A stretch of DNA of 64,000 bases from Naegleria gruberi (taxonomy: Eukaryota), in NCBI GenBank assembly GCA_000004985.1, contig GG738846.1; one strand, written 5' to 3'. The notes below the pieces were generated by a model. That model ran no database searches. It saw only the letters and a list, made by a program, of their open reading frames with translations, and had not been told where the DNA came from. Position numbers and translations under genes: made by a program. Shown piece by piece: positions 3,791 to 39,188 of this stretch (positions are counted from its first letter, which is position 1; each line of letters starts with the position of its first letter).

Positions 3791-4065
3791 TTTTTTTTGT
3801 ATTTTTTTAAAATTTATATTTGAAACACACAAATAGAATTCCATTACATTGAACATGCACAATATTGAAAATTATTACAATAATACTGATATATTGAAAA
3901 TTGATAAATAGAATCTCAAACTTCCCTAGTAACACACCTTAATTCCTCCCACTCCAATGGATTGGAATTTAGGAGATCTCTTTTCTTCCATTTCCCCTCC
4001 ATTTTCTCTATTTTTACTTTTGCCTCAGCTAAATTCATCATCATCACTTCTTAATAGAAAAAAAA

Positions 4066-5574
4066 ATGTTTCCACCACAGCCTTCCTCTAACAACAACAA
4101 CCACAACAACACTACTCCCCATCCAACTTCAACAGTGCCGTTGATTGGTGCTACTCCACAGCACCACCATCATATGATGATGACACCAACACCAACAACA
4201 ACAACAACTAATCAACAACCTGTAACATTATCAGCATTCACTTCTTCTTCTTCCACTCCGCAAATGTACATGTCAACAATAACACCAACTCCACAAATAC
4301 AACAACCTTCGTTCTATTCACCACTTCCTACAAATCAGCCAATTATTCCTTCTACAATCGCAAATCTACCTCCTATTCCACAACAATTCTTGGATCACTA
4401 TCGTATGCTTCAAGAGACTCTCAGTCAATTATCGGTATTTGTGCCACAATATAATAATCAAACAAACATTGTTAATACACTACAACAACAAGTTAATGGT
4501 CAACAACAAGCGCTCAATAATTTGACAAATGATGTAAAAAAAGAAAAAACTCAATTGGAAAAGTTACAGAAATCTAGTTTTACAAACTTGATTGCCAAGA
4601 CGTTGGATAAACATGGTCATGAAAAGAAAGTGGAAAAGGAAAATTCTGAATACAAGATTGCACTTGATAGGGAAAATCAAGCTAGAGCTCAACTTCAAAA
4701 CATTCAAAATCAATTATTGCAAGCTCAAAGTGCTCAATCGTCCCTTTTACAAAAGGTCCAATTATTCGAATCCAAAAAAATTGAACTGAACCAAGTAACT
4801 GATCAAATTATTGGTGCCGCTCAACTGCCACTTACTCACATTATTCCAGTAACCCATCAAAATTTAAATGTTCAACAATCTAAAAAGAATCAAATTATGC
4901 AATACTTGGCACAATACCGTAATGGATTGATGAATTTACAACAAGCATACTCACTTTTACAAACTTGCTATGAGAGATTATCAGAGGCCAAGAATTTAGC
5001 CACTGCCGATTTGTTCATGAGAGGAGGTTATGCAAACATGTACGTTGATTCAATGAAGTATGAAAATCTCAATCGTGCCAACGATGACGCCAAGAGAGCT
5101 AAAATGTTCATTGCTGAGGCTGTGAGATTGTGTCCACCTCTTTCAACACAACCACTTTTTGTTGCCAAGGTAACACAAGGTGATTTTGTTTTTGATGTGT
5201 TTTTTGATAATTTCATTTCCGATTATATTGTTCACGAAAAGATTAGAAAGAGTAAGGAAGCCATGGCTGAATCAATTCAACACTTGGCAAACACCTTAAA
5301 TTGGATTCAAACCAGTTGTCTTCCTCAAATTGAAAGAGATATGGCCCAAACAGATCAAATTGTATTGTCACTGACTAGTACTTTGGAAAATGAAAGAAGA
5401 AATGTTGTCAATATGGCTCTCGAACAATCAAAATCATTTTCCCAAACACCACAAAATTTCACTCAAGTTGTTCTACCACCTCCTCAAAATCCTTCCACTA
5501 CCACTTCATCATCAGCACAATATTTTGATCCTAATGTTGTTCAATATTCATCTGCTCCACCTTTGGATCAATAA
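4066..5574 (+). CDS. Low-complexity, coiled-coil protein of unknown function. The N-terminus is N/T/H/Q-rich.
   Basis: A 502-aa uninterrupted ORF with an aaaaaaATG start context. The N-terminal 100 aa are N/T/Q/H homopolymer tracts, the centre is a heptad-like Q/L/K-rich coiled coil, and the C-terminal ~150 aa is higher-complexity. I recognise no family. Confidence 0.5.
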   Translation: MFPPQPSSNNNNHNNTTPHPTSTVPLIGATPQHHHHMMMTPTPTTTTTNQQPVTLSAFTSSSSTPQMYMSTITPTPQIQQPSFYSPLPTNQPIIPSTIANLPPIPQQFLDHYRMLQETLSQLSVFVPQYNNQTNIVNTLQQQVNGQQQALNNLTNDVKKEKTQLEKLQKSSFTNLIAKTLDKHGHEKKVEKENSEYKIALDRENQARAQLQNIQNQLLQAQSAQSSLLQKVQLFESKKIELNQVTDQIIGAAQLPLTHIIPVTHQNLNVQQSKKNQIMQYLAQYRNGLMNLQQAYSLLQTCYERLSEAKNLATADLFMRGGYANMYVDSMKYENLNRANDDAKRAKMFIAEAVRLCPPLSTQPLFVAKVTQGDFVFDVFFDNFISDYIVHEKIRKSKEAMAESIQHLANTLNWIQTSCLPQIERDMAQTDQIVLSLTSTLENERRNVVNMALEQSKSFSQTPQNFTQVVLPPPQNPSTTTSSSAQYFDPNVVQYSSAPPLDQ

Positions 5575-5681: not shown

Positions 5682-7061
5682 ATGAGTTTATATCATCATC
5701 ACAAAACACAAACAGTCTACGTCTTGTTACGTACAGTGATGAGAGCATTTTATGATCCGGTCCATGCTGTGGTGATGGATGCTCTATTGCACTATCAAAC
5801 AAGTCAGTTAGATGAAGTGAAGGAATCCGAATTGGCTAAAAAAGTTAATTTGCAACCAAGTGTTGTTAAGAAGGCCCTGTTAGAATTGTATTCTGATTTA
5901 TTATTGACAAAGGAAGAGAGGGCTACGGAACGGAAAAAGGGACAGAAAAAGTACCCATCACGATCCGAGACTTATTGGAGAGTGGATTATGAACAATGTA
6001 TCAATGCTATTCGATACAAGATGTATTTATTATCTTTGGAAGTGAAAAAGAAAGTTCAAGCAGATCCAACCTATACTTGTACAGTTTGTGACGAGGAATA
6101 TGAAGCTTATGATGTTACTAGATTATTAGATTTTGCAACAGGAACTCTTATATGTCAAACTTGTGGAGGTCAAGTTGACGAATCACGTGAATCATTGGAA
6201 AAACATGAAGAAACAATATCTGGAAGTGATTCATTGGAAGTAAGATATAATAATCAATTACAACTTATTATTGAAAAATTGAATGAATGTAAAGCCTATG
6301 TTGTACCAAAGGAATACAGATGGAATTACAAACATATTGTCACAAAGGAAGAGGCTGATAGAAAGATTGAAGAACAACGTAAGGCCATCGAGAGAGAGAA
6401 ATCTATGGGATCACATCGTCCAGTTTCCACAATATCAAGAAATACTCAGTCCAATAACTTGGGTGCTACTGCACACGTTGCCAAGGCCTCTGCCTTATCT
6501 TCAAGTAGTTACATTAGTTTGGATCCATCGGCAAATATCAAGATTGACTTTGTGGAAGAACGTGGAATTATTGATGATGACAGTGATGCTCATATTCAAA
6601 ACAATCCAGTTCAAAAGAAACCTGATAATCCATTCTTCTTGAAACAAACAGTTTCTTCACGTGAATACAATGATTACAATCAAGCAAATGATGTTGAGGA
6701 TGACGATGACCACATTATTTCATCAAAGGATAGAGAAATCGACACCTCTGTTTATCATGAATTATTGGAAAGAGAAGCTGCTGAAAATGCCAAATCAGAA
6801 AAAATGGTTGACGAATTTGAAGCAATTGATGAAGGTGTGATGGATAACATGATCACTGATACAAATGAATTTGAAAGTGTTACCAATTTCGAACAAGATA
6901 ATGGAATGGATGGTAATAATAATGAGCCAATGATTTTTGTTGCTGGTGTACCTGTACCATATTCTCAGATCACTCCTGAGCATGAAAGTGCCATGACTGA
7001 ACTAGAATATGAAGAATATGATAGAATTAAGGCCGAACAAGAACAAATATATGACTTTTAA
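5682..7061 (+). CDS. GTF2E1: General transcription factor TFIIE alpha subunit (Tfa1/GTF2E1-like).
   Basis: The N-terminal winged-helix segment (VLLRTVMRAFYDPVHAVVMDALL...) is followed by a zinc ribbon, C-x2-C-x(21)-C-x2-C (CTVCDEEY...CQTCGG), and then an acidic tail. This is the TFIIE-alpha architecture. Confidence 0.75.
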   Translation: MSLYHHHKTQTVYVLLRTVMRAFYDPVHAVVMDALLHYQTSQLDEVKESELAKKVNLQPSVVKKALLELYSDLLLTKEERATERKKGQKKYPSRSETYWRVDYEQCINAIRYKMYLLSLEVKKKVQADPTYTCTVCDEEYEAYDVTRLLDFATGTLICQTCGGQVDESRESLEKHEETISGSDSLEVRYNNQLQLIIEKLNECKAYVVPKEYRWNYKHIVTKEEADRKIEEQRKAIEREKSMGSHRPVSTISRNTQSNNLGATAHVAKASALSSSSYISLDPSANIKIDFVEERGIIDDDSDAHIQNNPVQKKPDNPFFLKQTVSSREYNDYNQANDVEDDDDHIISSKDREIDTSVYHELLEREAAENAKSEKMVDEFEAIDEGVMDNMITDTNEFESVTNFEQDNGMDGNNNEPMIFVAGVPVPYSQITPEHESAMTELEYEEYDRIKAEQEQIYDF

Positions 7062-7187
7062 TAAATTTGGTAAACTCTTCAAAAATCAAAACAAATGAAC
7101 ATGTTACATTTTCAGTGAATTCGTCTTTTATAAGTTAAGATTGTTGTCACCCAATCATAGTTGATGTAACGAATGTTTTAAATGTAA

Positions 7188-10100
7188 CTAATTAGAGAAC
7201 TTTCTTAACAAGTTTCTATAAATTTCCTCCTCCTCATCTTCATTCAAAATAGTAGGAGGTTTTGATTTTGCAATTTGATCCAGAATTGAATTGATTTGTA
7301 TCATGTTACAATTAAATGTAACGAGGCAAGCTTCTATCAATTTGATTGGTAATTGGAAATAATTACTCAAGTTATTTCCATGACAAAGATAAAAGTGAGA
7401 GCTGGTTGGGAAAATTTCATTACTCTCAAAAATAGATAGAGCATACAATATTTGGTCAATTGAAATATTGGAATTACGAATAGAAATGTCAGTGTAGAGC
7501 ATTAAAAATTGGCAAAGTTTGATTTCGACATTTGGATGTTCAATTCCAATCAAATCCATGGCAAGATTGATATCTTTTTGAGAGAAGAAGTACTTTTCGT
7601 TGAGATACTCTCTAATTCGTTCTCTATTCTCAAAGTAAATTTCTTCACTGGATGGAAGCTTAACTTTTGGTAATGTAACATTGGACAAAATCTTTCTCTT
7701 ATTCCACTTTTGTTTTTCATACTCGAAAAGATAGAGACAACGATCTGGGAGACTGGCAACTACCTTTGCATTCTCTGAAATGAATGGTTCAAAATATTGT
7801 AACATATCCATAGTTATTTCTATACCACAGAAAATAGATTCATAGTCATCACGTTTAAGAATTGGAATATTACTAAATCTTGGCACAAATAAATTCTTCT
7901 TGACATATTCTATCATAGCCATTTGATTCAAATAGTTACAACCATACTTGCTTTTTACAAATTCGTAGAGTTTGGATCTTGAAAAGTCAATTATGTGTTC
8001 GTCAATATCGGTACCAGTAACAATACCTTTTTCTCCAACCAAGTAGGAGGCCAAGCATGTAACAAATCCACATCCACTTCCAACATCTAGGAATTTGGTT
8101 CCTTCTTTAAGGTCGAGAGCTTCCAACCCTCTAATAACCACAAGTGTTGGGGTAATATTGAAATGAATCGTTTCATCAAAGTTATCTGGTTTTAGGTTAC
8201 AATCAATCACATATTGGCCATAGTTTGAAATGTTAACAAATTCATTTGGAGAGAAGGCAGATTTTGGAATATTCAAAAGTGCAGACAGTAATTTGTTTGA
8301 CTTGATTCCAGACCACTTGACAGCCTTTTGTTCCTTCTTTGTTTGAGGATTTTTGTATGTAATCTTGATAGGATTAGCAAGGGTGTTAATAATCTTTTCA
8401 TTCATTTCCATCAAGTGTGCAGTATTATTATCAGAAGAGTTATTGTCTCCTAAAAGATTCATAGGATTATCAGAGAAGACTTGTTTGTCATTATTCTTAA
8501 TGAAAACTCTATCAAAGTAATCCACACCAACTCGAATGTTACTTGGCTCTGTGCTTAATTGGCTGAATATGTTATTAAAGTATGATATTTCAGCATTGTG
8601 AATATTGAAAGCAAAAGGTTCTCTTCCAAAATTAGCTGAAACTTTCATAAACTTGGAAGCAGTGCTAACAGAAAAGTAAACTGTTGAGAGATTATCCAAA
8701 CGGTAAGGAGTGAATCCTATAAATTCTCCATTCTTGGTAAAGAATATACTATTCTCGTTCAAAACTCCACAACCAATAACATCTCCACCATTAAATTTTG
8801 GTCCAAAAATTCTCTTATTACAATTCTTTACGAGACATCCATCAAATGACGAGTAGGAAATGAATTGTACATTCATCCATTCGTTCAAAAGTGAAATACC
8901 AACGGAACATTTGCCAGTTTCCCCTTCGTCTTGCAAAACAACTTCAAAATATTTGAAGGGAGTTCTATCGATTGGAACTGAGCATTTGGCAAATAGAGGT
9001 TTTTCAATTGGTAGCATGTGAACAAGGGTGAAATCTTCACAAATCATTTCTTTAAAGTTACACTCCAATGTAGGCAAGATTTGTTGGGAAATGGAAGGTT
9101 GGGTTTCCTCTATGTCTTTGCAAACTTGTGATATTATTTCCTCTTGAGAGGAAGCAAGCAAATCAATTTTGATTAATCTCTTTCTTGGAATTCTGACGCC
9201 AGGATAGAAGATGGATCCATTTACAATGACGTTATTCATGAGCTTACTATCGTTGCTTGTAATTTGAGAGAAGAGAGGAATATTATTAATCTCAATAACA
9301 CCATTCATTGAGATTGAAAATGGTCCTTCACTGTATGAGAAGGAATACATGGAATTATTTAAAATGGAAGGTTTGATAATAGATTGAAATGGTATTTTGA
9401 TTTCCTTGACGGTAGTTGATTGTTTGTTAATTAATTTAAGTATGAGATTTTGATCCATTAATTCTGTCAAGGTTGTTTTTGGTAGATAAATTGTGGTCAA
9501 ATTGTACCAATTCAGGAATGTATCAAATGTTTGGAATGGTTGAGGTATTTTAGGTACAATGTTAAATGTTTGATCCGGATAGGTGGTATTTAAATCTCTA
9601 TTCTTTGTTAAATTTTTTTCATTTCTTAATCCATAAACTAAATGATACTGTTGGTTTACTTGATTTGGTAGGATTATATTAATATTCTTCAAATTAATTT
9701 CAATATCACTAAATTGTTTCATTTGACAATTAAAGCTAATTTTACCAATTACAGAGCTTCCCGATTTGATAAAATGTTCGTTTTTAAAAGGACCTGTACA
9801 AATAGAATATAAATCAATTTTTACAACATCTCCTATTGGTAAATTATTCAAATCAAAACATTGTATAACAAAAACTCTTTTTTCCAATAAATTTAACATT
9901 CCTGTTTGGTAGTAAAATTGTTGATTAAATGTTATAAATTCATACTTGTCATTCTTCCTATTAAAAGATGAAATGATGAATTGTTTAAAATTAGCAAAAT
10001 TCATTCGGAGAGATGAAAGTGTTTGACTATTACTATTATTCAACTCTACACTAAAATCCGATAAAGTTACAAGGAATGTACCATTATTCTCCCTACTCTC

Positions 10101-10286
10101 ACGATCATTTCCATCACATGAAATATTTGGGAGTGAATGATGAATCGGAGGTGGAGGAGGGAAAATCATTGGACTTGCCGATGAAGGAATATTTTGTATC
10201 ATTCCATGAGATCCTGATGATAAATGTGTTGTTGCATGATGGTGCAGTGGATGATGAGGAGGTGGTGTTCTGAACATTGGAATCAT
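7188..10286 (-). CDS. Large 1032-aa protein combining a SPRY domain with a protein-L-isoaspartate O-methyltransferase-like (PCMT) domain.
   Basis: The SPRY region (YFEVVLQDEGETGKCSVGISLL...FGPKFNGGDVIGCGV...IFFTKNGEFIG...VYFSVS...ANFG) is followed by MTase motif I with PCMT-like spacing (FLDVGSGCGFVTCLASYLVGEKGIVTGTDIDEHII). The N-terminus is P/H-rich. Confidence 0.7.
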   Translation of the reverse strand: MIPMFRTPPPHHPLHHHATTHLSSGSHGMIQNIPSSASPMIFPPPPPIHHSLPNISCDGNDRESRENNGTFLVTLSDFSVELNNSNSQTLSSLRMNFANFKQFIISSFNRKNDKYEFITFNQQFYYQTGMLNLLEKRVFVIQCFDLNNLPIGDVVKIDLYSICTGPFKNEHFIKSGSSVIGKISFNCQMKQFSDIEINLKNINIILPNQVNQQYHLVYGLRNEKNLTKNRDLNTTYPDQTFNIVPKIPQPFQTFDTFLNWYNLTTIYLPKTTLTELMDQNLILKLINKQSTTVKEIKIPFQSIIKPSILNNSMYSFSYSEGPFSISMNGVIEINNIPLFSQITSNDSKLMNNVIVNGSIFYPGVRIPRKRLIKIDLLASSQEEIISQVCKDIEETQPSISQQILPTLECNFKEMICEDFTLVHMLPIEKPLFAKCSVPIDRTPFKYFEVVLQDEGETGKCSVGISLLNEWMNVQFISYSSFDGCLVKNCNKRIFGPKFNGGDVIGCGVLNENSIFFTKNGEFIGFTPYRLDNLSTVYFSVSTASKFMKVSANFGREPFAFNIHNAEISYFNNIFSQLSTEPSNIRVGVDYFDRVFIKNNDKQVFSDNPMNLLGDNNSSDNNTAHLMEMNEKIINTLANPIKITYKNPQTKKEQKAVKWSGIKSNKLLSALLNIPKSAFSPNEFVNISNYGQYVIDCNLKPDNFDETIHFNITPTLVVIRGLEALDLKEGTKFLDVGSGCGFVTCLASYLVGEKGIVTGTDIDEHIIDFSRSKLYEFVKSKYGCNYLNQMAMIEYVKKNLFVPRFSNIPILKRDDYESIFCGIEITMDMLQYFEPFISENAKVVASLPDRCLYLFEYEKQKWNKRKILSNVTLPKVKLPSSEEIYFENRERIREYLNEKYFFSQKDINLAMDLIGIEHPNVEIKLCQFLMLYTDISIRNSNISIDQILYALSIFESNEIFPTSSHFYLCHGNNLSNYFQLPIKLIEACLVTFNCNMIQINSILDQIAKSKPPTILNEDEEEEIYRNLLRKFSN

Positions 10287-17744: not shown

Positions 17745-19084
17745 TTATTGTTGTTGACTTGATCCAGGAATAATTCCGGTAGATCCCATAGTGTTTGGAA
17801 CAGAAACACCTCCAACAGAGGCACCTGATTGTGGATCCTCAGCTCTCTTCTTATCCAGTATGACCCAATCATATTCGTAATCCATAACAAACTTTTGACG
17901 AACAAATAAATCACGGAATAACTTTCTTAAATATTGATAATCTGGCTTATCTTCAAATCCTAGAGAACGAGCATAATTGAGATAAGTGGCAAATTCAGGT
18001 GGATAACCTTCACACAAAGTCTTGATACCAGTACTAGTCTTTTTCTCACAAATTCTGTTATACTTTTCCAATTTAGTTCTGGCCTTCAATCCTTGCCATG
18101 GCAATGATCCACGATTAAAGTACATAAAGACATAACCCAAAGATTCCAAATCATCTCTTCTTGATTGTTCGATACCCAAGTGGTTGTTAATACTGGCATA
18201 ACGAGCAGTACCAGTCAAATGTTTGTTATCACGGTATGGAATGTGTACGTGCTTTGAGTCTCTGTACTTCTTGGCCAAACCGTAATCGATGAGGTAGACA
18301 ATTTCTGACTTTTTAGCAGGTCCCATCAAAAAGTTGTCTGGTTTAATATCTCTGTGGATAAAGTTCTTGGCATGCAAGTATTCTACACGTTTCAACATTT
18401 GATCAGCCAACATTAAAACAGTCTTTAAACTGAATTTACGACCACAACGGTTGAATTGTTCTTCGAGAGAGGAACCGAGAAGATCCATAACCATTACGTT
18501 GAAATCTCCTTCGATACCATACCATTTAACCTTTGGAATGCCCACAGCTTCCTCTTCCAGATAGCCAGAACGTCAAAATTATCATGATAATGGGCAGTTT
18601 AAATTTTTGAAGAGTTTGGTGTTGTTAAATATGAATGTATTGTGTTATTCATCATAACAAGTCATAGTAGTAGAAGTAAATATTACCGAGAGTAGTACAA
18701 TTGTAAGAATAGATGACGAGATTGTATACAAAAATGTTGTTATACAATATTGATGGTTGATGTAGTCATCACATCAATACAACAGAATAATAAATTTAAA
18801 ATATTATGGAATAGAGATGATAAATTCAAAGTATTAAAGGACAGGTGTTGGGCTTGTAACCAGCGTTAAAGTAAATGAAACATACCTTTCTTTGAGAGGT
18901 TCAAGAGCTTGAGCAAACGAGCTTCATAGAGAAGTTGTGGATGTTTAGCTTTTCTGTGTTCCAATTTTACAGCAACCTTTTCCAAGGTTTGCTTGTTTGT
19001 AGCAATGAAAATTTCACCAAAGGCTCCACTTCCAATCTTTTTACCGAGAACAAACTTGTCTCCAACTCTATGTTCAATAGACAT
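17745..19084 (-). CDS. CK1: Casein kinase I (CK1). Two exons: 19084-18886, then ~18553 or 18547 down to 17745.
   Basis: Exon 1 has the glycine loop and beta3 lysine ([13 protein letters not shown]...VAVKLE...[12 protein letters not shown]). Exon 2 carries the whole CK1 catalytic core ([50 protein letters not shown]). A GTATGT donor follows ...LSKK+g. The two candidate acceptors (ggaAG| or gaggaAG|) are both in phase. Confidence 0.9.
18548..18885 (-). other. CK1 intron (~332-338 nt), GTATGT donor. The acceptor is ambiguous between 18554 and 18548.
   Basis: GTATGT lies directly after exon 1. Both candidate AG acceptors preserve the CK1 frame ([10 protein letters not shown]...). Confidence 0.6.
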
Positions 19085-20077
19085 GTTGTTGTTGTTGTTG
19101 TTATTGTATTTTTAAAACGTTTTTTTTAAAACTTTGAAAGTCTCCCCTAAAGTGGTGAATGAATAAATTCTCGAAAGTGCAATGTCTTCCTTCTGCAAGT
19201 AGTTGATGATCTAAACTTTTGGCGACAAAAGAAAAGCAAGTAGTTGCCGTATTTTTTAGTGAGAGGTGATGAAAACTGGTTCAAGGTTCAAGAGCACTCA
19301 AATCGTCAATGGCATGATTCATTGAAAAATTTAATTGGCGGGAAATCTTATAATGATGGGACATGTAAGAAAGAACTCTACAGTAGTATTAGTGGTGGTG
19401 CTTACAACATTATGTAACAATTATTAATATTAGGATGAATACTTTTGCAGGTATATGTTGATAATTTATCACATTCGAATTTCCTTAATACAAATATTAA
19501 TTATTAATATTCATAGACTAACATTAATAGGAACATAAAGTGTTGAAGGGAGTGGAGGTCAAGGGATCAATATATAGTATTTAGACTTTCGTTTATAATT
19601 GAACGTCATCCTAATTCCAAAGTGAGTTCATGAAAGGGGGTGTCGAAGATTTACCATTGGGAATGCCTCTAAAAAACCAAGTATTGTGAAAAAGATGGGA
19701 GAGATTGGCTTTCCAACAAGTTCAGAAGAACTTGAAAAGAGAATTGTACCAATTGGATACTATGGAAACTTCTTTCTTTTGCTTTCTATGCTCTTATATT
19801 GGAAAAGCTTTATTACTTAACTTTAAAACTTGTGGAATACCTTGGTGAAGAATCCTAACTTTACACCAACAAAACAATCAAGTTTTAACATGCACAAACT
19901 CTCTCTCTGTTTAAAGGAAAAGCTGTGAATTATCAGAATCTCAATCATTGATGCAGATAAGGTGGAGAGTTCCAATTTCTTTAATTGTTCAAAGACTAAG
20001 GTGTTTTACAATGAATTTTCAAATGTTAAATGTGATTATAGATCTCAATTAATCAACTTTCATTACAAGTTGACAAA

Positions 20078-20770
20078 ATGAATGAAGAAAGTTATTCGAA
20101 TCCATTACTAGCTCTCCAAACTAAACTTGATACCGTACAACATTACAAACCATTTCAAGAAATTAAAAATTCAATCTCAATTAAACAAATTGATTGGGAA
20201 AAGGAATGTTTAAACATTATCATTTGTGGAGAAGGAGCTGTTGGAAAAACAACATTAATTCAAAATTATTTTATGGAGAAATTCCTGTCTTTTACAATGA
20301 TGGAGTTTATAATGAAAACTTGATTAAATATATGGATGTGGATACAAGGAAACATGTCAAGGCATTGGTGTTGTGGATACTGAAGGTCAAGAGTAAGTTG
20401 GTTGAAAATTTTCCAATTGACCAGTGTGAGAAAATTAGAGATTATGATCGATTGAGACCTCTTACATATCCAGAAACAGATTTGTTTTGTATTTGTTTCA
20501 AGAATACGATCTAGGTCTTTCAATAAGATTCCATCTCGGTGGTTTCCAGAAATTAATCATCACTTGCCAAATTCTCCAATTGTTTTGGTGGCCTGCAAGA
20601 TTGACTTGTCAAGAGATGAAGAAATGAAACGAATGAGATATAGATATTTTGATTCTCCAGTTAAACATGAAGATGCTATTAAAATGGCCGAGAATATTGG
20701 AGCAGTAACATATATTGAAACATCAGCTACAGGAGGGAAATATTTCAGATTTTGCAGAGATTATTACTAA
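20078..20770 (+). pseudogene. Rho/Rac-family small GTPase. One real 46-nt intron (20393-20438), plus three 1-nt frame breaks, so the sequence is either a pseudogene or carries homopolymer errors. There is no CAAX box.
   Basis: The P-loop GEGAVGKT is in frame A. FYGEIPVFYNDG...KHVKALVLW is in frame B (break at T-run ~20269-72). DTEGQE is in frame C (break at GG 20375-76). After GTAAGT...TTAG, DYDRLRPLTYPETDLFCICF is back in frame B. SRIRSRSFNKIPSRWFPEINHHLPNSPIVLVACKIDL...ETSAT is in frame A (break at TTT ~20495-97). The reconstructed protein aligns along its length with Rac1. Confidence 0.7.
20393..20438 (+). other. Intron of the Rho GTPase gene (46 nt), GTAAGT...ATTAG, phase 2.
   Basis: Splicing joins DTEGQ-E to DYDRLRPL exactly as in Rac/Rho (GQEDYDRLRPLSYP). 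Confidence 0.75.
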
Positions 20771-20927: not shown

Positions 20928-23900
20928 CTAATTAATGGGTTGATAGTATTGAGGAAAGGTTTTTTTTGATTCATAAAGTAAATATTGCAATTGTCGAGAG
21001 ATAGACTCAAAGGATGGTCGACTATTTGGATCCTCACTCCAACACAATTTCATCAAATCCAAATACTTATCCGAAATGGCAACAAGAGACGAGGTAGAGA
21101 AGGAATTATTGAATGGCAGTACAAATTCCTCAAGCCACAATATTTCCTCCTCTCTATTGGTGAATGGAATAACTGGTCTTTCTCCATTCAATACATGAAA
21201 GAGAATGTTGAATTCATTCATTTTTGAATTGTTTGGTATGAATTTGTAAACTTTTTTGGAATTGTAATTCAAATATGGAGCTTCTTCAAAAAATAATTCC
21301 CACATGATAATTCCAAATGAATAAACGTCTACTTTTGTGGTATATTTTGGAGAGTCATTAATCATCTCAATTGCAATGTAACATGTACTGCCTATTTGTT
21401 TGGTAGCTCCAAGACTTGTAGACAAGACCTTACTGAGACCAAAATCACATACCCTAGCATTGCCTCCATCTGAGAGAAGTATATTTCCTGGTTTTAAATC
21501 TCTATTAAATAAATACATAAATTCATATCAGAAAGATTACAAAATTGAGAAACAAACCTGTGAACTATTTGTTGAGAGTGTAAATATGACATTCCAGTGG
21601 CAACATCAACAAGAATACTCAGTTTTTGAGCAAGAGTCAAAGATTCCTTTCCTATTTTACAATTATAAATCAACTTGTCGAGACTTCCTCTAGGATAATA
21701 TTCCACAATCATAAACTTTCTATTGTCAGAGATACAGACACCATATAATTTAACAATGGAAGGATGATCTAACATGTTCAGTACAGCAACTTCTCTTTCA
21801 AATTCTTCATCTTGCAAGGTATCATCTGTTTTCAAAGATTTCAATGCGACATCTTTTGATTTCCACTTTCCAAGCCAAATAGTTCCATTTCCTCCTTCTC
21901 CAATCTTGTTAATTATTTCAATATCTTCCAATGGAATAATCAATCGTGACTTTTTCACACTTGATGAGCTCGAATGATTCAAAAGCAATGGTGTAGACAT
22001 ATTGGAAGAGCTACTCACAAAGAATAATTGTCTATTATTAATCTTTCTCTCCATCATTTCCTCTGCCTTTAGTTTCTTATCAAATAGAGATGCCTTCTTA
22101 TAGACATTTCTGAAACATCTCACCAATAAGAAAATCGCTACTAACAACACAACAGTCAAGAGCATACCAAAAATTACAGAGACGGGTATGACTGTGTATA
22201 AAATGATTGGATTGAAACTATCATTTTCTAAACATACAAATACAGAGTGGAGAGGATTTTTCAAGCTCATACCTTTTGGACAATCAAGAATATTGAAAAT
22301 GAAATTCATTTGAAAAGATTCCAAGATCATGGTTGCATTCACCTTTTTCTTTTGAACATTTAAATTCAAAGAGAGGTCATTAATTATGTTAGTATGCTCT
22401 TGAGTTTGGTAGAGAATATTTGCATCTGTTGAACAATGAATTGTTGCAGGTTGACTCAAGAATTTCAAACGTTCTCCATTGTTGATTATGAAATCAGAAA
22501 ATATGATTGAGGAAATAACTTGTCCTGGATAAATGTCAATTTCCAAAACAGTTTCAGCTCCCACATTGTATTTCACAATGTTCTCAGTTGAATATTCAAT
22601 TTCCATGTGAAAAGTTGCATTAGATATTGCAAATGCAAATGTAGGTCCATAATTGTAAGCAACATTATTAGAAATTATAGCACGTTGAAAATCGATTTGT
22701 TTCGTTGCATAGACACATCCTCCAGAATTATACGCCAAATTATTACGGCAAGCACCAAATAATTTGTTTCTTCCAACATCTCTCTCAATTTCCAAATAGA
22801 GAGCTCCTCCACTATTCTTACTAGTATTATTATCAAATACAAATGCACAATTATCTAAAACGTAATTAGTTCCTATTTCCTTTCTATAGTATAGAGCTCC
22901 TCCATTATTCAATGCAGTGTTTTGAATCATGTCTGTAAACAAACTATATATTGATTCTCCATAAAAGAAGACAGCACCTCCATTTCTGGCTGTATTATTG
23001 GAGAAGGTAAATCCCTCAAATGATAAAGTGCTATATCCATAGGCATAGAGAGTTCCATCTCCATCATTGATATTTGAATCGGCATGACCAATTGCTATTC
23101 TGATATAGGAACCCTCTGAAAAATCATTCACTGACCTCATCATTCCATAACCATTCTCAAAACTACAGGCAGACATGAAAATAGTAGATACCATATCAGT
23201 GACTATTGGCATGGTGTTGCAATTTTTAAAGCGAGTTCTCACGAGTCTAAGGGAATAAGTTGCTGAAACTGATAATATTGGTTCATCTGTATTGAACTTT
23301 GTCGTTTCAAAATTGGAATCCTGAATCAATATTTGGTCTGCATTATTAACACTAAGGTATAATGAATCTTTTGCAATGAGACTATCAATGGTAGATGCTC
23401 CACAATAACGTAGAATAATTCTAGAAATGAGAAGAGTGTTGGAATTCTTGATCATTACATTATCAAATCTAAAGAGTTCTAATGTAGAATTATTCAATAT
23501 TGAATTCTCTATATGAAATAATTGAGAGGTAACCACAATATCAGTATCTGAATCCAAATGATATTTAAAGAAACTATTCAAAAATTCAGTGTTTAACATT
23601 TTGACATATTCAGAACTCATTCCATACATTTCACAATCAATAATCTTACTCTCCTTTACCAAAAGTCTATTAATTGAATTGAGTGCAGAATTTGCAAGTA
23701 CTGATCCACTCAGAGTAATATCACCATCAAATACTCTATATCTGTACATGCTAACAAAACTACCAATTTTTGAATCAATGAATCGAATGGTTTTGTACTT
23801 TTGAATGTATCTGAAATTATCCAAAGAAACATTCAAGAAGGTAATTGCCTGAGCAGACACACCACTCAAATCAAAGCCAGCCCAACTATAGGTAACATTA

Positions 23901-24424
23901 CTATTTTCCTCTGCATTAAACAATTCGAAAAACAATTCATTATAGGAATAGGAAGAGACTCCAACAGCAGGAAAGGGAAATACTCGACGATTCTCCCTAT
24001 CCATTATGAGTCTGATAATAACTGAATCTGCTGGTGCCTTCTTTTTATGCACTTGTTTCAAGAAGGCATCCACTTGTGCCAGGTTGACACATGGATTTTC
24101 AATGGTGGTACAATTCTTTGGATCCGTGGTAGGATTACTCAGTGCAGATGTAGATGATCGACTACTACTAGTAGTATGAACAGCAATCGGCTTGACATAT
24201 AAAACAGTTCCATTCACTGCTATATTATTATATATTTGAAAGATATTCTCGGAGGGCCATGAATAATTATAATAATAATATTCAGCATGATTATCATTAG
24301 CAACAATACTAGGATCATTATATTTACATTCTACCCAAAGATTGTGTGAAAAGGTGCAGAACAGTAAAATCTGCACAAAAAACAGAAACCTTGAGCGGGT
24401 AATTGATTGTTGTGGTTTGCACAT
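20928..24424 (-). CDS. Receptor-like transmembrane protein kinase (~1146 aa): signal peptide, ectodomain with PMP-type (GGA) repeats predicted to form a beta-helix, one TM helix, and a TKL-like kinase domain. Two exons: 24424-21558 and 21501-20928.
   Basis: The start is likely at M11 (aaaaaagaaaATGtgc), giving the signal peptide MCKPQQSITRSRFLFFVQILLFCTF. The ectodomain repeats N-x-[AS]-x-x-N-GGA-[LV]-[FY] (NGGAVFF, NGGALYY, SGGALYL, SGGCVYA). The TM helix is PVSVIFGMLLTVVLLVAIFLLV. The kinase has GEGGNG...VALKSL...HR|DLKPGNILL...DFG, and the HRD motif is split by the intron. Confidence 0.85.
21502..21557 (-). other. Intron in the receptor kinase (56 nt), GTTTGTT...TTAATAG, phase 2.
   Basis: It joins ...QQIVH-R|DLKPGNILL and restores the catalytic-loop HRD motif. 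Confidence 0.8.
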
Positions 24425-24561: not shown

Positions 24562-25487
24562 TTATTTTGTGTCTAGTTTAGTTTTAAAGAGTTGGGGATC
24601 ATGTTTCATTATTTGAACGTGAACTGTTGATCGTTCCTCGACGTCACCTGGATCATTTTCAAACATTGGTGGATACTTTCTATCAAAAACTGGTTCAACC
24701 ATGTAGCCTCTTTCTTTGGCCCGTGTGAAAAATTCCAAATCTTCCTTAATAAGCCAAGGTCTGTGATGACTGTTTAGAGTTCAAGTTGACAACTGAAAAT
24801 TCTCAATGTTTTTCTACTTACGTATAGCTCACATAAATAATAGAATTTTCATGAGATAAATAATCACAACTGTCCAATAATTGATAATGACAAACATGAT
24901 TAAATAAAACATCACTCAAAATTAAAACATCATAGGTATGCTTTTCACCTGCAAAAGTTTCGTCCAATTTCTCACCCCAAGCATGACCTCTCACTTGAAC
25001 TCGTTTATCTTCCTTATCAAAATTTAATTCCACATTCACAGCCAAATTTGGAATCAAATCTCCATGATCAATATCTGTAATTACTACTTTAGAAGATCCC
25101 AATTTTCCACAAACTAGAGCTGGCAAACCACCAGCAGCTCCCAATTCAACAACACTCTTGTCCTTTACCAAATGTTGATTGTTGTAAAAGTATTCTCCAA
25201 TACACTTGGCAGCATTATATAAATAATTTCCCCATAAAATGTGTTCACCTTTATATTTCAAAATTTCATAATTTTCATCACACACACAAAATATTGTTTT
25301 CAATAATATTTTAAAAAACATCGGAAATCATGATGATCTTACCAATTAAACTAACTTTAACTTGAAAATCTGTTCCTTCAATATCAAATGTTTCAATTCG
25401 GGTTGGTCTTGGTTTTTTATAATAATTGTCATCCACTTTGAACATGTCTCCCTCATCGAGAGCAAGTACTAAATCCTCATCAGCCAT
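24562..25487 (-). CDS. Class I SAM-dependent methyltransferase of the Efm7/Nnt1/METTL21 (Methyltransf_16) family, ~259 aa. Three exons: 25487-25343, 25248-24822 and 24769-24562.
   Basis: Exon 1 is MADEDLVLALDEGDMF...FQVKVSLIG. Exon 2 is EHILWGNYLYNAAKC...VVELGAAGGLPALVCGKLGSSKVVITD (motif I). Exon 3, beyond the track's stop, encodes HHRPWLIKEDLEFFTRAKERGYMVEPVF..., which is typical of this family's C-terminus. The exon phases are 1, 2, 0, consistent throughout. Confidence 0.7.
24770..24821 (-). other. Intron 2 of the Efm7-like gene (52 nt), GTAAGT...AAACAG.
   Basis: GTAAGT overlaps the apparent TAA stop of the track ORF. Splicing extends the protein by 69 protein-like residues to a TAA at 24562-64. 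Confidence 0.6.
25249..25342 (-). other. Intron 1 of the Efm7-like gene (94 nt), GTAAGA...TATAAAG.
   Basis: It joins VSLIG|EHILWG and recreates the family's LWG motif context. Confidence 0.6.
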
Positions 25488-25549
25488 TTTTTTAAAGTTA
25501 ATATTTTGATGATTCAATTAATTTGGTGAATTTATTGAATCCTTCTCAT

Positions 25550-27277
25550 TTACTTCTTTTTCTTCTTCTTCTTCTTCTTTTTCTTTGCTGGTTCACCTTG
25601 TGATGGGTTTGTGGAAGACTCGGCTACTGGTGGTTTAGAAGGTGGTGCAGAGGATTTCTTTGCTTTCTTTGATTGTTGGGCTGCTACTAATGGTTTAGAA
25701 GGTTTAGAAGAATCAGAGGATTGTTTGGATTTCTTTGAAGGTTGAGGAGCTACTTGAGTAGTTGCAGAAGAATCAGAGGATTTTTTGGATTTCTTCGATG
25801 AAGGTTGAGCTATGTCATTATCATTTTGATTCTTTCTTTTCTTTGAGGAATTATTTGGTGGTGTTACTACTGCTGGCGTTGCAGATGCATCACTTTGTTT
25901 CTTCTTTTTCTTCTTCTTCTTTTTCTTTGCTGGTTCAGCTACTGCTGGTTGTGGATTAGAAGATGATGATGCAGATGCAGAATCAGAAGATTTCTTTGAT
26001 TTCTTTGCTTGTTGGGCTACTACTAATGGTTTAGAAGAGGAAGATGATGATGAAGAGGATTTCTTTGATGAAGACTCTTTCGATGATTTAGAAGATGCTT
26101 TCTTTAACATCTGGGCTACTACTAATGGTTTAGGAGATGATGATGCAAATAATTTCTTTGGTTTCTTGGGAGGCTCTTCCACTTCTGATAAAGAATCATC
26201 ATCATCATCGTCTTCCTCTAGTTTCTTCCTTTTCTTTGAGGATTTCTTTGGTGGCTCTTCTTCTTCCATACTGAATGATTCATCATCATCATCATCATCA
26301 TCATCGGAATGGTTTATATTTGAATTAGCACGTGTTTGTCGATTTCTTTGTTCTTGTGCCCGTTGTTGATCTCGTTCTTGCTTCAATCGAGCAATAAATT
26401 CACCACCAGTGTTAGTTAATCTCTCCATCACTTGAGGCTTTTTGAGAGCATTATCCAAATGTGTTAAAGCAAACAAATTGGAATCAGGATTGGTAATATC
26501 AGCATTCTCCAAAATTGAAAAGACTTGATCGATACTATTAAGACCAGACGCCTCCACTCGTTTCTCCAAAGCCTCCTCCTCTGGTGTAAAGAAATTATAC
26601 CTCCTGGCAAGAGCATTAAAATTGACGCTCTTATTAATATCATATTTTCCTTCCATTAATTCTTTGCCAGTGAGGAAACTCTCTGCATAAAGAGTCCGGT
26701 GCTTTTTGGCCATAGTTATCACCCATCCCCATCTACACATATTCTCCAACTTTTTCTCAATGTAAATAGTGATTCTTTCAAGTGCAGCTTTTGTCATCTT
26801 CAATTCATTCATATTTCGTATTGGTTTTTGCCAATTTCTAAATCTATCATCAAAGTACCTAAGTTCATTATTAAGTTTAGGTGATTCTTTAATTACAAAT
26901 TTACATGCTCTAGCAATTCGCTGCGCCGGAATTGATTTTAATTTACCATTTTCAATTTCCAATTGAAATAATATTGTTAATATTTGTCTTCTCATGACGT
27001 GAAGTCCTGGTGCTATTTGCATAATGTGTGCCAGTCTGGTGTGCTTTTTAACAGGTTTTCTCTTCTTTTTCTTTAATTCAATCCAATCACCCTCATCAAC
27101 AACTTCAGCCAGCTCATCGGTCTCCACTTGGTTAGCTGCTAAAATTTTGTCTAATAATTTCGAACGATCTCCAATTTCCCCATCATATTCATCAACAGTT
27201 GGTGTCTTGTGCTTTTGCTTTTGTACGACACCATCGATCTTTTCAAGAGGTTTGTTGATGTTCTTCTGTTTTGGCAT
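25550..27277 (-). CDS. Nuclear or nucleolar-type protein, 575 aa: a conserved ~330-aa N-terminal domain of unknown family, then a long D/E-, S- and K-rich tail that ends in poly-K.
   Basis: A single ORF with an aaaaaaaATG start. The tail carries D8, S9 and K10-11 runs plus repeated SSKKSKKSSDS / PLVVAQ motifs (Nopp140- or nucleolin-like composition). Confidence 0.5.
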   Translation of the reverse strand: MPKQKNINKPLEKIDGVVQKQKHKTPTVDEYDGEIGDRSKLLDKILAANQVETDELAEVVDEGDWIELKKKKRKPVKKHTRLAHIMQIAPGLHVMRRQILTILFQLEIENGKLKSIPAQRIARACKFVIKESPKLNNELRYFDDRFRNWQKPIRNMNELKMTKAALERITIYIEKKLENMCRWGWVITMAKKHRTLYAESFLTGKELMEGKYDINKSVNFNALARRYNFFTPEEEALEKRVEASGLNSIDQVFSILENADITNPDSNLFALTHLDNALKKPQVMERLTNTGGEFIARLKQERDQQRAQEQRNRQTRANSNINHSDDDDDDDDESFSMEEEEPPKKSSKKRKKLEEDDDDDDSLSEVEEPPKKPKKLFASSSPKPLVVAQMLKKASSKSSKESSSKKSSSSSSSSSKPLVVAQQAKKSKKSSDSASASSSSNPQPAVAEPAKKKKKKKKKKQSDASATPAVVTPPNNSSKKRKNQNDNDIAQPSSKKSKKSSDSSATTQVAPQPSKKSKQSSDSSKPSKPLVAAQQSKKAKKSSAPPSKPPVAESSTNPSQGEPAKKKKKKKKKKK

Positions 27278-36092: not shown

Positions 36093-36261
36093 ATTTATTA
36101 ACACAGATAACAATCAAATGAATAGTGTATAAAGACAAGTTCAAATAGTTGTCCTTCTAATCTAGCAGTAGATAAGTTAACAATGGATTCATCAAAAAGC
36201 CTTTTTTGTCAAGTATCAGAGTTTCACTGATATCTTGTGGCGATCACTCAGCTTTCATAAC

Positions 36262-39188
36262 ATGAAAAAAACTGCAAACACAAATTATCACGAGAATATG
36301 AACACCCAAAAATTGTTCATTTTCCTTCTCGTATTCCTTTCAGTTGTTACACTTCAAGAAGTAACAGCATCCTTCATCAACTCGAAGAATATCTACACGT
36401 TCGGCTACATTTACTACTCTGGTTTTTCACCACTAGCCATCACACCTGATACTAGCACTCCAATTGAAAATGATCTACTACCCAAATATCTATTCAACGG
36501 CACCGAATCATGGAAATTAATAACAGGAAATGAAACAACCACCACTACTATGAACACTTCTGTTAAACTGCAACAAATAGTTACGGGCATGTCGGTGATG
36601 TTTTACGTGTTGGAATATTTCAATAGTGATACGAATAGTTCTCTTGGGCAAAGAATTCTCGTCTCTGGAAGTAATATGAATGGACAGGGAGCTGTTATCA
36701 AACCACCCTATATCATGTCTACTCCAGAATTAATTTACATCTATTCGAAAGATGGACAAGCTTTTAATCCCTTCTCTAATTCGAATAGGATTATTCACAT
36801 GGCTTGTTTGTATTCATGTTTGATCGTGTCCAGTGATGGTCATGTTCGTTACCATTATGGACTGTTGGAAGTTGGTACTGGAATTTGGAATGTTCGATTT
36901 AGTGCAGTTTCGTATAACGATCCAGATAATGGTCAATTGTTAACTGGTGTGAAATATGTACATGCTACAATTGGTGGATATTATGGTTGTGAAACAATGT
37001 TTGCAGTTACTAATTATGGTCATGTTTTTAGTAGTGGATGTCATAATTCTGGATTGAGAGGAACTTCCTCTTCCTATTCAGATACGAGTGTTAATTTAAT
37101 TCCATCATTGAGGAATATTACAACAGTTTCGGTTGGTTTCTTGGATGGAAATGGAGAGACTGGCAAGACAGCTGCTGGAGCTATTGATGTGAATGGAGTT
37201 TTGTGGACTTGGGGAAGTAATTTTAATGGAATGTTGGGTTGGAATTCGACACTAAATGTTAGTGAAACAGCTCAACCTGTCACCTTAATTCAAAACCCAG
37301 TAACACAAGTTTCATTTGGATTTTCACATGCCATTGTAATGACAAATAATGGAGATGTTTTGTGTTTTGGAGGAAATCTTTACCAGCAATGTGATTTCAA
37401 TCTTCTGATCCATCAATCATGGTCCCTAAAAAAATTGACAATGTTACAAATTCACTTTACTGCACTGCCAAGGAATACATTTCAATTTGCATTGTAATAG
37501 ATGGTACTGTTAAATCATGGGGAGTTTCTTTGAATTCGTATAAAAATCTGGGTCATGCTAGTAATCCAGTTTTTGACACGGTCAACTTGGGACAATCGAT
37601 AACTTCCTCAGTTTACTTGTCAGGAATTCATGGCATGGCAATCACTACAACAGAAAAGGTTAAAGTTTGGGGAAGTAATAATAATGGGATGTTAACACTT
37701 GGAGATGAATACATGATTAGATATCCTAGAAAATTAACAACTTTTGGACTTTCTTATTCGAATGTTTCGGTTGTGATTGCCAAATCAGGAAATGCTTGTT
37801 CATTCTTATTGACTGCTTTGGGGAATGATAGTTCTACCAATGTATTAGAATATTGGGGAGGTTGCAATAACGGTCTTGGATTTTCAGTAACTGCCAATAC
37901 TCCAACACAAGCACTCACATCATTGACATCTAAAAAAGTTATTGACCTAGATATGAAAGGAGAGTTTGCAGTAGCTCTTGTTGAGAATGGGGATGTCTAT
38001 GCTTGGGGAAAGGGAGATTATTACTCTTTTGGCTCTTCATCAAGTAGTAATCCAACTCCTACGTTAATCTATTCGAATGTTAAACTAATCACAGCTGCCT
38101 CTTCCAATACGTATCTATTATTACAGAATGGAACACTATTGGGTATTGGTGATAATACCTATGATGAATTAGGTGTCACTGGACCGACTAGTATTTCAAA
38201 TTTCATTGCATTGAATACTTCAATCATTGATTCGAATAATGAAGTCATTGTTGACATTAAGGGAGGTACACAAACACTCTTTGTCTTGACAGATAAGGGA
38301 AATGTGTACGGTATTGGTTTAAATACTGGAGGTAATAAGTATCTTTCCCCTAGTGCAACTTCCAAATATTCAACTTTTATTCGAATCAATGGAAATGTCA
38401 AAGTTAGAAAGATGTTTGTTGGATTTTACAGTGCTACTGTATTTGTTTCAACAAGTGGAGTACCCTACTATTTCGATGGAACACCAATCAAATTGAATCT
38501 TCCATCAGATGATTCGTATTTGGTTGACTCATTCATGTATTCAAAAAGACACTACTTTATTACCAAAAAAGGGAATGTTTACACATCTGGTTCCAATGAT
38601 TATTATCAGACTTCATACAGAAGTGGTTTTAATCCAGTTATTTCTGCTCCAACTCTCTACATGACAAAAGATTATTTTGATGGAGTACCATATATGGGAA
38701 TTGCTGGATCTTTGGTTGCCGGAATTATTACCAGAGAAGAATATACATGTTTTGGAGTGAATTCTACCGATTCAACTGTCTGCTCTTCTCGTGGTTATTG
38801 TTCTGGACCAGATTCTTGCACATGTGATGAAGGATATTATGGGTTGACCTGTGCCAATTTTTCCTGCAATTCAATTTCCTCATTCAATTCTTCAGTTTGC
38901 TCTGGAAGAGGAATTTGTTCTGGGCCTAATACTTGCTCTAATTGTACAAATTCTATTGGAAACAATTGTGAATATCCTATTTGTTATGGAACTTATTCGA
39001 ATAATGTTTCAGTTTGTAGTGGAAATGGATATTGCACATCAGTAGATACTTGTCAATGTAAATTTGGATTTTATGGAACTAAATGTGAATATAGAACGTG
39101 TTTTGGAGGTTCAGCATTGAATGGAGTTTTACCAAGACAGACAGTCGCCGATGTCTTTTGTAAAAACATTAACAAGCTATTGAAATAA
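36262..39188 (+). CDS. Secreted protein with RCC1-like beta-propeller repeats followed by C-terminal tenascin-type EGF repeats. A single-base frame break near 37396-37398 splits it into two track ORFs.
   Basis: It has a signal peptide (LFIFLLVFLSVVTLQEVTAS) and many G-x-V-x-x-WG-x-N-x-x-G-x-LG RCC1 motifs. The C-terminus carries four CxCxxGYxGxxC-type EGF units (CSGPDSCTCDEGYYGLTC...). Frame A ends ...LYQQCDF and frame B continues (Q)SSDPSIMVPKKIDNV.... A TTT-to-TTTT correction joins them, and the RCC1 periodicity is preserved across the break. Confidence 0.7.

Follow-up and report, generated by a model that had tools for sequence, protein, structure and literature searches.

Receptor kinases have more than one origin: animals, plants, Entamoeba and a few further groups evolved them separately, with sensor modules of their own. 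The gene considered here lies on the minus strand at 20928..24424 of a 64,000-nucleotide stretch of Naegleria gruberi DNA (the window; contig GG738846.1 of GenBank assembly GCA_000004985.1) and probably encodes a receptor-like kinase with a beta-helix ectodomain. Protist single-pass receptor-like kinases and eukaryotic surface proteins resembling polymorphic membrane proteins (PMPs) are known separately; their fusion is present in the databases only as unnamed and often broken models. In Chlamydia, the Pmps carry FxxN and GGA(I,L,V) motifs on successive rungs of a right-handed beta-helix and act as adhesin modules (PMC10715098, PMC11166332). The window protein shares with them the repeat hidden Markov model (HMM) PF02415, matched above its cut-off, but has four to five recognisable rungs where the chlamydial proteins have dozens, and is anchored by a transmembrane (TM) helix followed by a cytoplasmic kinase, without PF07548 and PF03797. 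The Pmp-like TM proteins of trichomonads raise adherence and carry endocytic motifs in their tails (Handrich et al., 2019, PMC6701047). They too are eukaryotic type-I membrane proteins with an FxxN/GGA(I,L,V) ectodomain and without the chlamydial middle and autotransporter domains, differing in their short cytoplasmic tail with endocytic motifs and no kinase, in belonging to another eukaryotic supergroup (PMC6701047) and in an ATPITK motif that is absent from the window protein.

The transmembrane kinases (TMKs) of Entamoeba resemble the window protein in being lineage-specific amoebal single-pass kinases with TKL-like (tyrosine kinase-like) catalytic domains. Their ectodomains consist of Cys-rich CXXC or lectin-like repeats and are not known to form a beta-helix. 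The TMK PATMK acts in phagocytosis (PMC2211552), and TMKs such as PATMK and EhTMKB1-9 have been implicated in phagocytosis and proliferation signalling (PMC2211552, PMC2880585). Membership of the Entamoeba TMK family was not borne out for the window protein, no Entamoeba protein being found among the best 120 kinase matches and the ectodomain matches obtained with phmmer being to Naegleria-family or PMP-repeat proteins only. A preliminary description of the locus, made from the DNA letters, had called PMP or beta-helix repeats an unusual sensor for a receptor kinase. No paper joining PMP or beta-helix repeats to a kinase and none on Naegleria receptor kinases was found in the literature searched, in which a sensor of this type is undescribed for any receptor-kinase lineage. 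A kinase was present in only 5 of 228 proteins from the ectodomain and PMP similarity searches, a set made up mostly of such matches with eight unrelated window open reading frames (ORFs) included, and all five belong to the Naegleria family.

Gene structure, splicing and selection

At the locus two minus-strand ORFs overlap (24454-21494 and 21518-20928), which the preliminary description had joined by splicing into a protein of about 1150 amino acids. The ORF list, the junction sequence and the spliced translation give a two-exon gene, with exon 1 at 24424-21558 starting with the ATG at 24424, an intron of 56 nt at 21502..21557 and exon 2 at 21501-20928 ending in the stop codon at 20930-20928. 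Splicing gives a coding sequence of 3441 nt, stop codon counted, which translates into 1146 amino acids. The phase 2 intron lies inside the catalytic loop, the junction reading ATA GTT CAC AG/GTTTGT...TTTAATAG/A GAT TTA AAA CCA GGA, such that the codons CAC AG/A GAT are split between H-R(AG) and (A)-D. Excision of 21557-21502 therefore joins H-R to D-L-K-P-G-N and regains the universal catalytic loop. That the HRD motif is interrupted by a GTTTGT intron, as first proposed, is thus borne out by the junction sequence and by the pattern of indels described below. Exon 1 by itself is a single open frame that takes in the signal peptide, the ectodomain, the TM helix and kinase subdomains I-VIb and ends at H-R, so the ectodomain and the kinase cannot be separate genes, an outcome that the preliminary description had named as one that would refute it.

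Comparison with a metagenome contig (L001; ENA ERZ929261), which is 98% identical across 5.1 kb and shares the upstream neighbour, a Methyltransf_16 gene, indicates the constraint on the gene. The start ATG is conserved, and in a codon-aware comparison the exons of the two copies are separated by 31 substitutions and two indels, of 6 nt and 3 nt, while the intron of the metagenome copy carries a 4-nt deletion. The overall ratio of non-synonymous to synonymous changes per site (pN/pS) is 0.11. The changes are unevenly spread, with 10 synonymous and 9 non-synonymous in the ectodomain (pN/pS 0.24), 3 synonymous and 0 non-synonymous in the TM helix and juxtamembrane segment (pN/pS 0) and 9 synonymous and 0 non-synonymous in the kinase (pN/pS 0), 6 of the last, all synonymous, lying in exon 2. 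Because the exon indels are multiples of three only, the intron indel is 4 nt and pN/pS is 0.11, the comparison supports a spliced gene under purifying selection and not a pseudogene.

The protein collections have a bearing on this point. Exact look-ups returned no record of the spliced protein, of the ORF that reads through the intron or of the exon-2 ORF, and a word-index search of a collection of 5.8 billion clusters turned up no N. gruberi protein model for the locus. This search is demonstrably not exhaustive, P0001 being missing from the matches of its kinase search; the claim is for this reason limited to no protein model having been found. With the ectodomain the same kind of search returned only the 98% identical metagenome copy, whose 90% cluster has a single member, and one bacterial protein. 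The absence of an N. gruberi protein from the collections searched would suit a non-functional relic, either a pseudogene or an ORF that is never expressed and hence has no reference model, and decaying genes do exist nearby, a Rho-like GTPase gene that looks frame-broken being a neighbour. Against this, the 3441-nt coding sequence is intact with every catalytic motif present, the low pN/pS relative to the metagenome copy, the absence of non-synonymous changes among the nine in the kinase and the contrast between exon indels of 3n and the 4-nt intron indel are those of a maintained gene, and many other ORFs in the window also lack an exact model, such that annotation gaps are common. A relic is on these grounds very improbable. 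Six other window ORFs are exact N. gruberi NEG-M proteins (NAEGRDRAFT_56599, _61798, _45391, _45394, _61812 and _45397), all on a 1,001,995-bp scaffold, which shows the window to be N. gruberi. An Entamoeba origin, to which the GTTTGT intron and a GC content of 33% had pointed, is rejected on these identities and because the best kinase matches are from Naegleria and Acrasis. The locus holds an intact gene for which a model is apparently missing from the N. gruberi reference.

Topology and ectodomain

The preliminary description had proposed a signal peptide, an ectodomain of about 700 amino acids, a single TM helix and a kinase, and this type-I single-pass layout is complete in one polypeptide on the spliced translation, Kyte-Doolittle hydropathy and Pfam matches. 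The predicted signal peptide (24332..24424, residues 1-~31, MCKPQQSITRSRFLFFVQILLFCTFSHNLWV) has a basic n-region (RSR) followed by a 13-residue hydrophobic core (FLFFVQILLFCTF) that is under the Kyte-Doolittle threshold for a TM helix, and hydrophobic N-termini are likewise found in three homologues (P0270, P0167 and L003). The N-glycosylatable ectodomain contains, past the signal peptide, 13 N-x-S/T sites and 14 Cys residues. The TM helix at 22109..22207 (residues ~740-772) is defined by the only 19-residue windows to exceed 1.8 on the Kyte-Doolittle scale (peak 3.2), and homologues have one TM helix at the equivalent place. The helix is followed by a cytoplasmic juxtamembrane segment (21923..22108, residues 773-834) with a family-conserved K.KAE..ME.KI motif common to sequences from N. 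fowleri, N. lovaniensis, N. gruberi and Acrasis kona.

The PMP-type coils lie at 22625..23029 (residues 466-600) and comprise four FxNN/...N-GGA[VL][FY] units and a fifth, degenerate one (NNVAYNYGP). A motif scan located all the reiterated GGA units listed in the preliminary description (NGGAVFF at residue 481, NGGALYY at 507, SGGALYL at 538 and SGGCVYA at 567), with the GGA[VL] or GGC[V] tetrapeptides at 482, 508, 539 and 568. FxxN occurs at residues 474 and 530, with degenerate xxNN/xxNT preceding the remaining two GGA units, giving the alternation of FxxN and GGA(I,L,V) that is characteristic of PMP proteins. Two independent libraries gave scores above their curated cut-offs, Pfam Chlam_PMP (PF02415) at 27.2 bits over three stretches (gathering cut-off 20.6; E=3.3e-6) and NCBIfam TIGR01376 POMP_repeat at 27.6 bits against a cut-off of 15. 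The lack of a significant match of this kind, which would have refuted the preliminary description, is thereby excluded. A phmmer search of 1.84 billion representatives with the ectodomain gave 246 matches at E<=1e-3, 34 of them at E<=1e-10. Nearly all were PMP-repeat proteins, mostly very long with many repeats and aligned to residues ~445-610 only, while a small subset, aligning from residue ~100 or ~300 to ~735, consists of Naegleria proteins. Within the family, N533, G539, G540, A541, G568 and G569 of these coils are nearly invariant. Neither the autotransporter beta-barrel (PF03797) nor the Pmp middle domain (PF07548) was detected by Pfam even at E<=10 and, unlike in Pmp autotransporters, the C-terminal half is the TM helix and the kinase.

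PMP-type sequence can be recognised in only about 135 of the roughly 700 residues of the ectodomain; Pfam has no match to the others in this protein. Two further modules of the ectodomain are specific to the family. The proposal of an ectodomain built from PMP repeats thus stands for the four to five coils at residues 466-600 and fails for the rest, which is predicted to be degenerate beta-helix and an immunoglobulin (Ig)-like sandwich. Towards the N-terminus lie a cap and degenerate right-handed beta-helix coils (23030..24127, residues ~100-465), the cap carrying a conserved LYV.P..NCT..NPC motif with C105 and C112. On the membrane side of the PMP-type coils there is a predicted Ig-like beta-sandwich (22289..22624, residues 601-712) with an invariant YPGQ (residues 632-635) and a motif of the WNNG.ER..FL type, and next to the membrane on the outside the family alignment defines a Cys-pair stalk (22214..22288, residues 713-737, ILDCPKGMSLKNPLHSVFVC) in which C715, P716, L721 and C731 are nearly invariant. 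An AlphaFold2 run on the 10-sequence family alignment gave a model (pLDDT 69.8, pTM 0.68) with beta-solenoid strand triplets from residue ~190 to ~600, pLDDT being 84-95 in most 10-residue blocks of residues 301-420 with one block at 73, in which the PMP repeats form right-handed beta-helix rungs and the module next to the stalk is the Ig-like sandwich. From its N-terminus the ectodomain is predicted to comprise the cap, then a long right-handed beta-helix that is of PMP type only in its final four or five coils, then the Ig-like sandwich and lastly the Cys-pair stalk. In UniProt, the N. fowleri relatives are named 'right handed beta helix domain-containing', while an N. lovaniensis paralogue (P0127) scored 22.1 bits with Pfam Beta_helix, under the cut-off of 25.9.

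Fold comparison of the model listed phage tailspikes, GH110 and GH87 enzymes, PL6 lyases, alginate epimerases and NosD, together with the adhesins PfbA, EtpA and HxuA and the autotransporter Vag8, and no sequence in the PDB matched the ectodomain below E=0.17. The enzymes in this list would suggest an active glycan-cleaving or glycan-modifying beta-helix enzyme of the lyase, hydrolase or epimerase type joined to the kinase, with substrate turnover, rather than binding by itself, coupled to signalling or to breakdown of the prey surface. Several observations make this unlikely. Sequence identity to the proteins found by fold comparison is 5-13%, there is no match to a catalytic family in Pfam or NCBIfam nor any PDB sequence match, the fold is equally common to non-enzymatic adhesins, and the conserved columns are structural, being the Gly, Asn and Cys of the GGA rungs and the stalk.

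Kinase domain, family and proposed mechanism

The kinase domain (20997..21922, residues 835-1124), probably of TKL type and interrupted by the intron, was matched by Pfam PK_Tyr_Ser-Thr (E=5.6e-59) and Pkinase (E=3.8e-54). The motifs listed in the preliminary description were recovered, with GEGGNG at 842-847, VALK at 859-862, HRDLKPGN (in HRDLKPGNILL) at 955-962 and DFG at 975-977, and with the alphaC Glu in EEFEREV the catalytic core (GxGxxG, VAxK, alphaC Glu, HRDxxxxN and DFG) is complete. The best single-domain PDB sequence matches were CTR1, TAK1 and TNNI3K (E=7e-42 to 5e-36), all TKL kinases, with the tyrosine kinases ABL, ITK and BMX close behind in this sequence search. The HRDLKPGN loop belongs to the Ser/Thr type, as does the P+1 region (G[ST]xxY.A.E), and a TKL-group Ser/Thr kinase, as suggested at first, fits the nearest solved structures; the kinase may be of dual specificity. 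Plant CTR1 and human TAK1/MAP3K7 and TNNI3K share the Ser/Thr-type loop HRDLKxxN but are cytoplasmic proteins without an ectodomain, whereas in the window kinase AIE takes the place of APE and the C-terminal lobe carries an insert of some 20 residues that is specific to the family.

The best named relatives of the kinase are from N. fowleri, N. gruberi, N. lovaniensis and Acrasis kona. Homologues in Naegleria share the order signal peptide, cap, GGA-coil beta-helix, YPGQ sandwich, CP..C stalk, TM helix, K.KAE juxtamembrane segment and TKL kinase, with the kinase 38-54% identical and the ectodomain 20-31%. In N. lovaniensis at least seven matches were obtained, and several members per Naegleria genome would be expected. 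Those of N. lovaniensis (C9374_013776, 1062 aa; C9374_001708, 1240 aa; C9374_008541, 799 aa) have the same module order, and in N. gruberi the 891-aa model NAEGRDRAFT_76208 stops at ...IIHR, at the same HR/D intron position. The database names of these proteins go no further than hypothetical, 'protein kinase domain-containing' or 'right handed beta helix domain-containing', and several are truncated or split. In N. fowleri, the homologue is represented by FDP41_009157 (ectodomain, 629 aa) and FDP41_009158 (stalk, TM helix and kinase, 530 aa), which lie 44 bp apart on the same strand with their ORFs in different frames in the reference assembly, a frameshift near position 7950 of the locus record L002 splitting the gene (5998-8744 of that record, VFQX01000067.1). 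A Logan assembly (P0270) has an uninterrupted 915-aa ORF across this junction, from the ectodomain to the G-loop; because it reads through, the split is an artefact or a strain frameshift, and on the sequence evidence the two models are one gene. C9374_002740 and C9374_002741 look like another split pair.

A distant family member was found in an uncultured heterolobosean-like organism (L003; ENA ERZ27315067, k141_671908, 1488-4833, GC 36%). Its 807-aa ectodomain ORF shows GGA coils, a sandwich motif in the form FPGQ, a stalk of the CP..C type and a TM helix; the kinase comes next, with an intron directly after the G-loop. By BLASTP the L003 ectodomain is 24% identical to that of the window protein over 442 amino acids, and despite this the family sub-profiles gave no match to it, indicating that the ectodomains diverge fast. 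In the N. fowleri homologue the kinase is 54% and the ectodomain ~26-28% identical to the window protein, and a fast-diverging ectodomain with a conserved kinase is typical of receptors with fast-evolving sensor domains. Near-invariant positions in the 10-sequence alignment additionally include C112, A564, N587, G593 and Y632-P633-G634, and among 348 proteins the profiles of the N-terminal part and the stalk match family members only. The matches of a word-index search with the same alignment were dominated by bacterial PMP proteins and included no Naegleria member, and tblastn found no paralogues within the 64-kb window, only an unrelated kinase at 17745-18545. The family has so far been found only in Naegleria and its relatives, uncultured ones included.

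Pmp-like proteins elsewhere raise the question of whether the window protein is mainly an adhesin or phagocytic anchor of the trichomonad type, its kinase having a minor or regulatory part, such as the control of its endocytosis, and not transducing an extracellular signal. In Chlamydia, PMP repeats serve as adhesin modules (PMC10715098, PMC11166332), the trichomonad proteins with their endocytic tail motifs increase adherence (PMC6701047), and the model of FDP41_004242, a family member in N. fowleri, lacks a kinase. After its juxtamembrane motif the latter model has a tail that resembles mis-predicted sequence, and the kinase is the most strongly conserved part of the protein, both in identity to N. 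fowleri and in the absence of non-synonymous change relative to the metagenome copy, suggesting that catalysis is central. A predominantly adhesive role appears improbable.

The reading that is probably correct is a type-I single-pass receptor-like Ser/Thr kinase of the TKL group with a beta-helix ectodomain, and a mechanism can be proposed on this basis. The beta-helix would be exposed either on the outside of the cell or to the lumen of phagosomes and would bind a multivalent, repetitive or polymeric ligand. Given the adhesins, tailspikes and polysaccharide-active enzymes that have this fold, the likeliest ligand would be a glycan or a polymer on the surface of bacterial prey or the substrate. 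Ligand binding or self-association would then cluster the receptors, leading to trans-phosphorylation of the activation segments (DFG...AIE) and to signalling onward to the cytoskeletal or phagocytic machinery, as has been proposed for the Entamoeba TMKs. This scheme is inferred by analogy with the trichomonad Pmp-like adhesins, the chlamydial Pmp rungs and the Entamoeba TMKs.

A number of points weigh against this interpretation. The label 'receptor' is inferred from the architecture alone. In the activation segment AIE replaces APE. The confidence of the AlphaFold2 model is moderate, pLDDT being below 50 for 148 residues, and AlphaFold2 has been shown to over-predict beta-solenoids for repeat proteins (bioRxiv 10.1101/2024.10.30.621056), against which it can be set that the coils here are highly degenerate and not perfect repeats. 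The intron donor GTTTGT is unlike the GTAAGT and GTAAGA of two neighbouring genes, and the missing N. gruberi model could reflect weak or absent transcript support at the time of annotation. Lastly, orthology to the N. fowleri gene is not established because that gene shows no synteny with the window gene and has its introns elsewhere.

The family is kept in the brain-eating amoeba N. fowleri, where it is mis-annotated as two genes, and the N. fowleri member would be a surface-exposed, druggable kinase with an ectodomain that has no human counterpart. A bolder suggestion, at present doubtful, is that these proteins form a heterolobosean receptor class in which a bacterial-type beta-helix adhesin or glycan-binding module, PMP-like and possibly laterally acquired, was fused to a TKL kinase, allowing pattern recognition of bacterial surface polysaccharides and converting contact with prey or host surfaces into phosphorylation. 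If so, the N. fowleri homologues would be parasite-specific kinases exposed at the surface and relevant to host-cell contact. For annotation, one apparently missing N. gruberi model and one split N. fowleri model have been flagged, and conserved modules have been defined by which further family members can be found.

Neighbouring genes in the window

Next to the kinase gene, a Rho/Rac-like small GTPase gene at 20078-20770 (+) has its GEGAVGKT P-loop, EIPVFYNDG and DTEGQE each in a frame of its own. No plausible introns lie between these three segments, and one GTAAGT..TTAG intron follows DTEGQE. The metagenome copy lacks two stretches at this locus, one of 464 bp (19825-20288) and one of 80 bp (20498-20577), and the locus looks like a decaying pseudogene or an indel-rich one. 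The upstream Methyltransf_16 gene at 24818-25517 (-) has an intron of about 95 nt (GTAAGA...AAAG, about 25341-25246). Beyond it, 25550-27277 (-) encodes a low-complexity protein of 575 amino acids, rich in Lys, Ser and Asp and with two poly-Lys runs of 11-12, for which there was no exact match in the collection. The unrelated kinase ORF at 17745-18545 (-), itself absent from the collection as an exact ORF, was matched by Pkinase (E=6.9e-18) from profile position 73, and an upstream exon is likely because the match starts there.

A tRNA scan found no tRNA genes in the window. Two overlapping ORFs at 36235-39188 (+) contain RCC1 repeats, the second adding EGF/teneurin-type EGF repeats after them, which is an unusual placing of an intracellular-type propeller beside extracellular-type repeats. 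A 1032-aa protein with SPRY and a PCMT-type methyltransferase domain is encoded at 7188-10286 (-), and a 788-aa TMC/anoctamin-like protein, NAEGRDRAFT_45397, at 43824-46190 (-).

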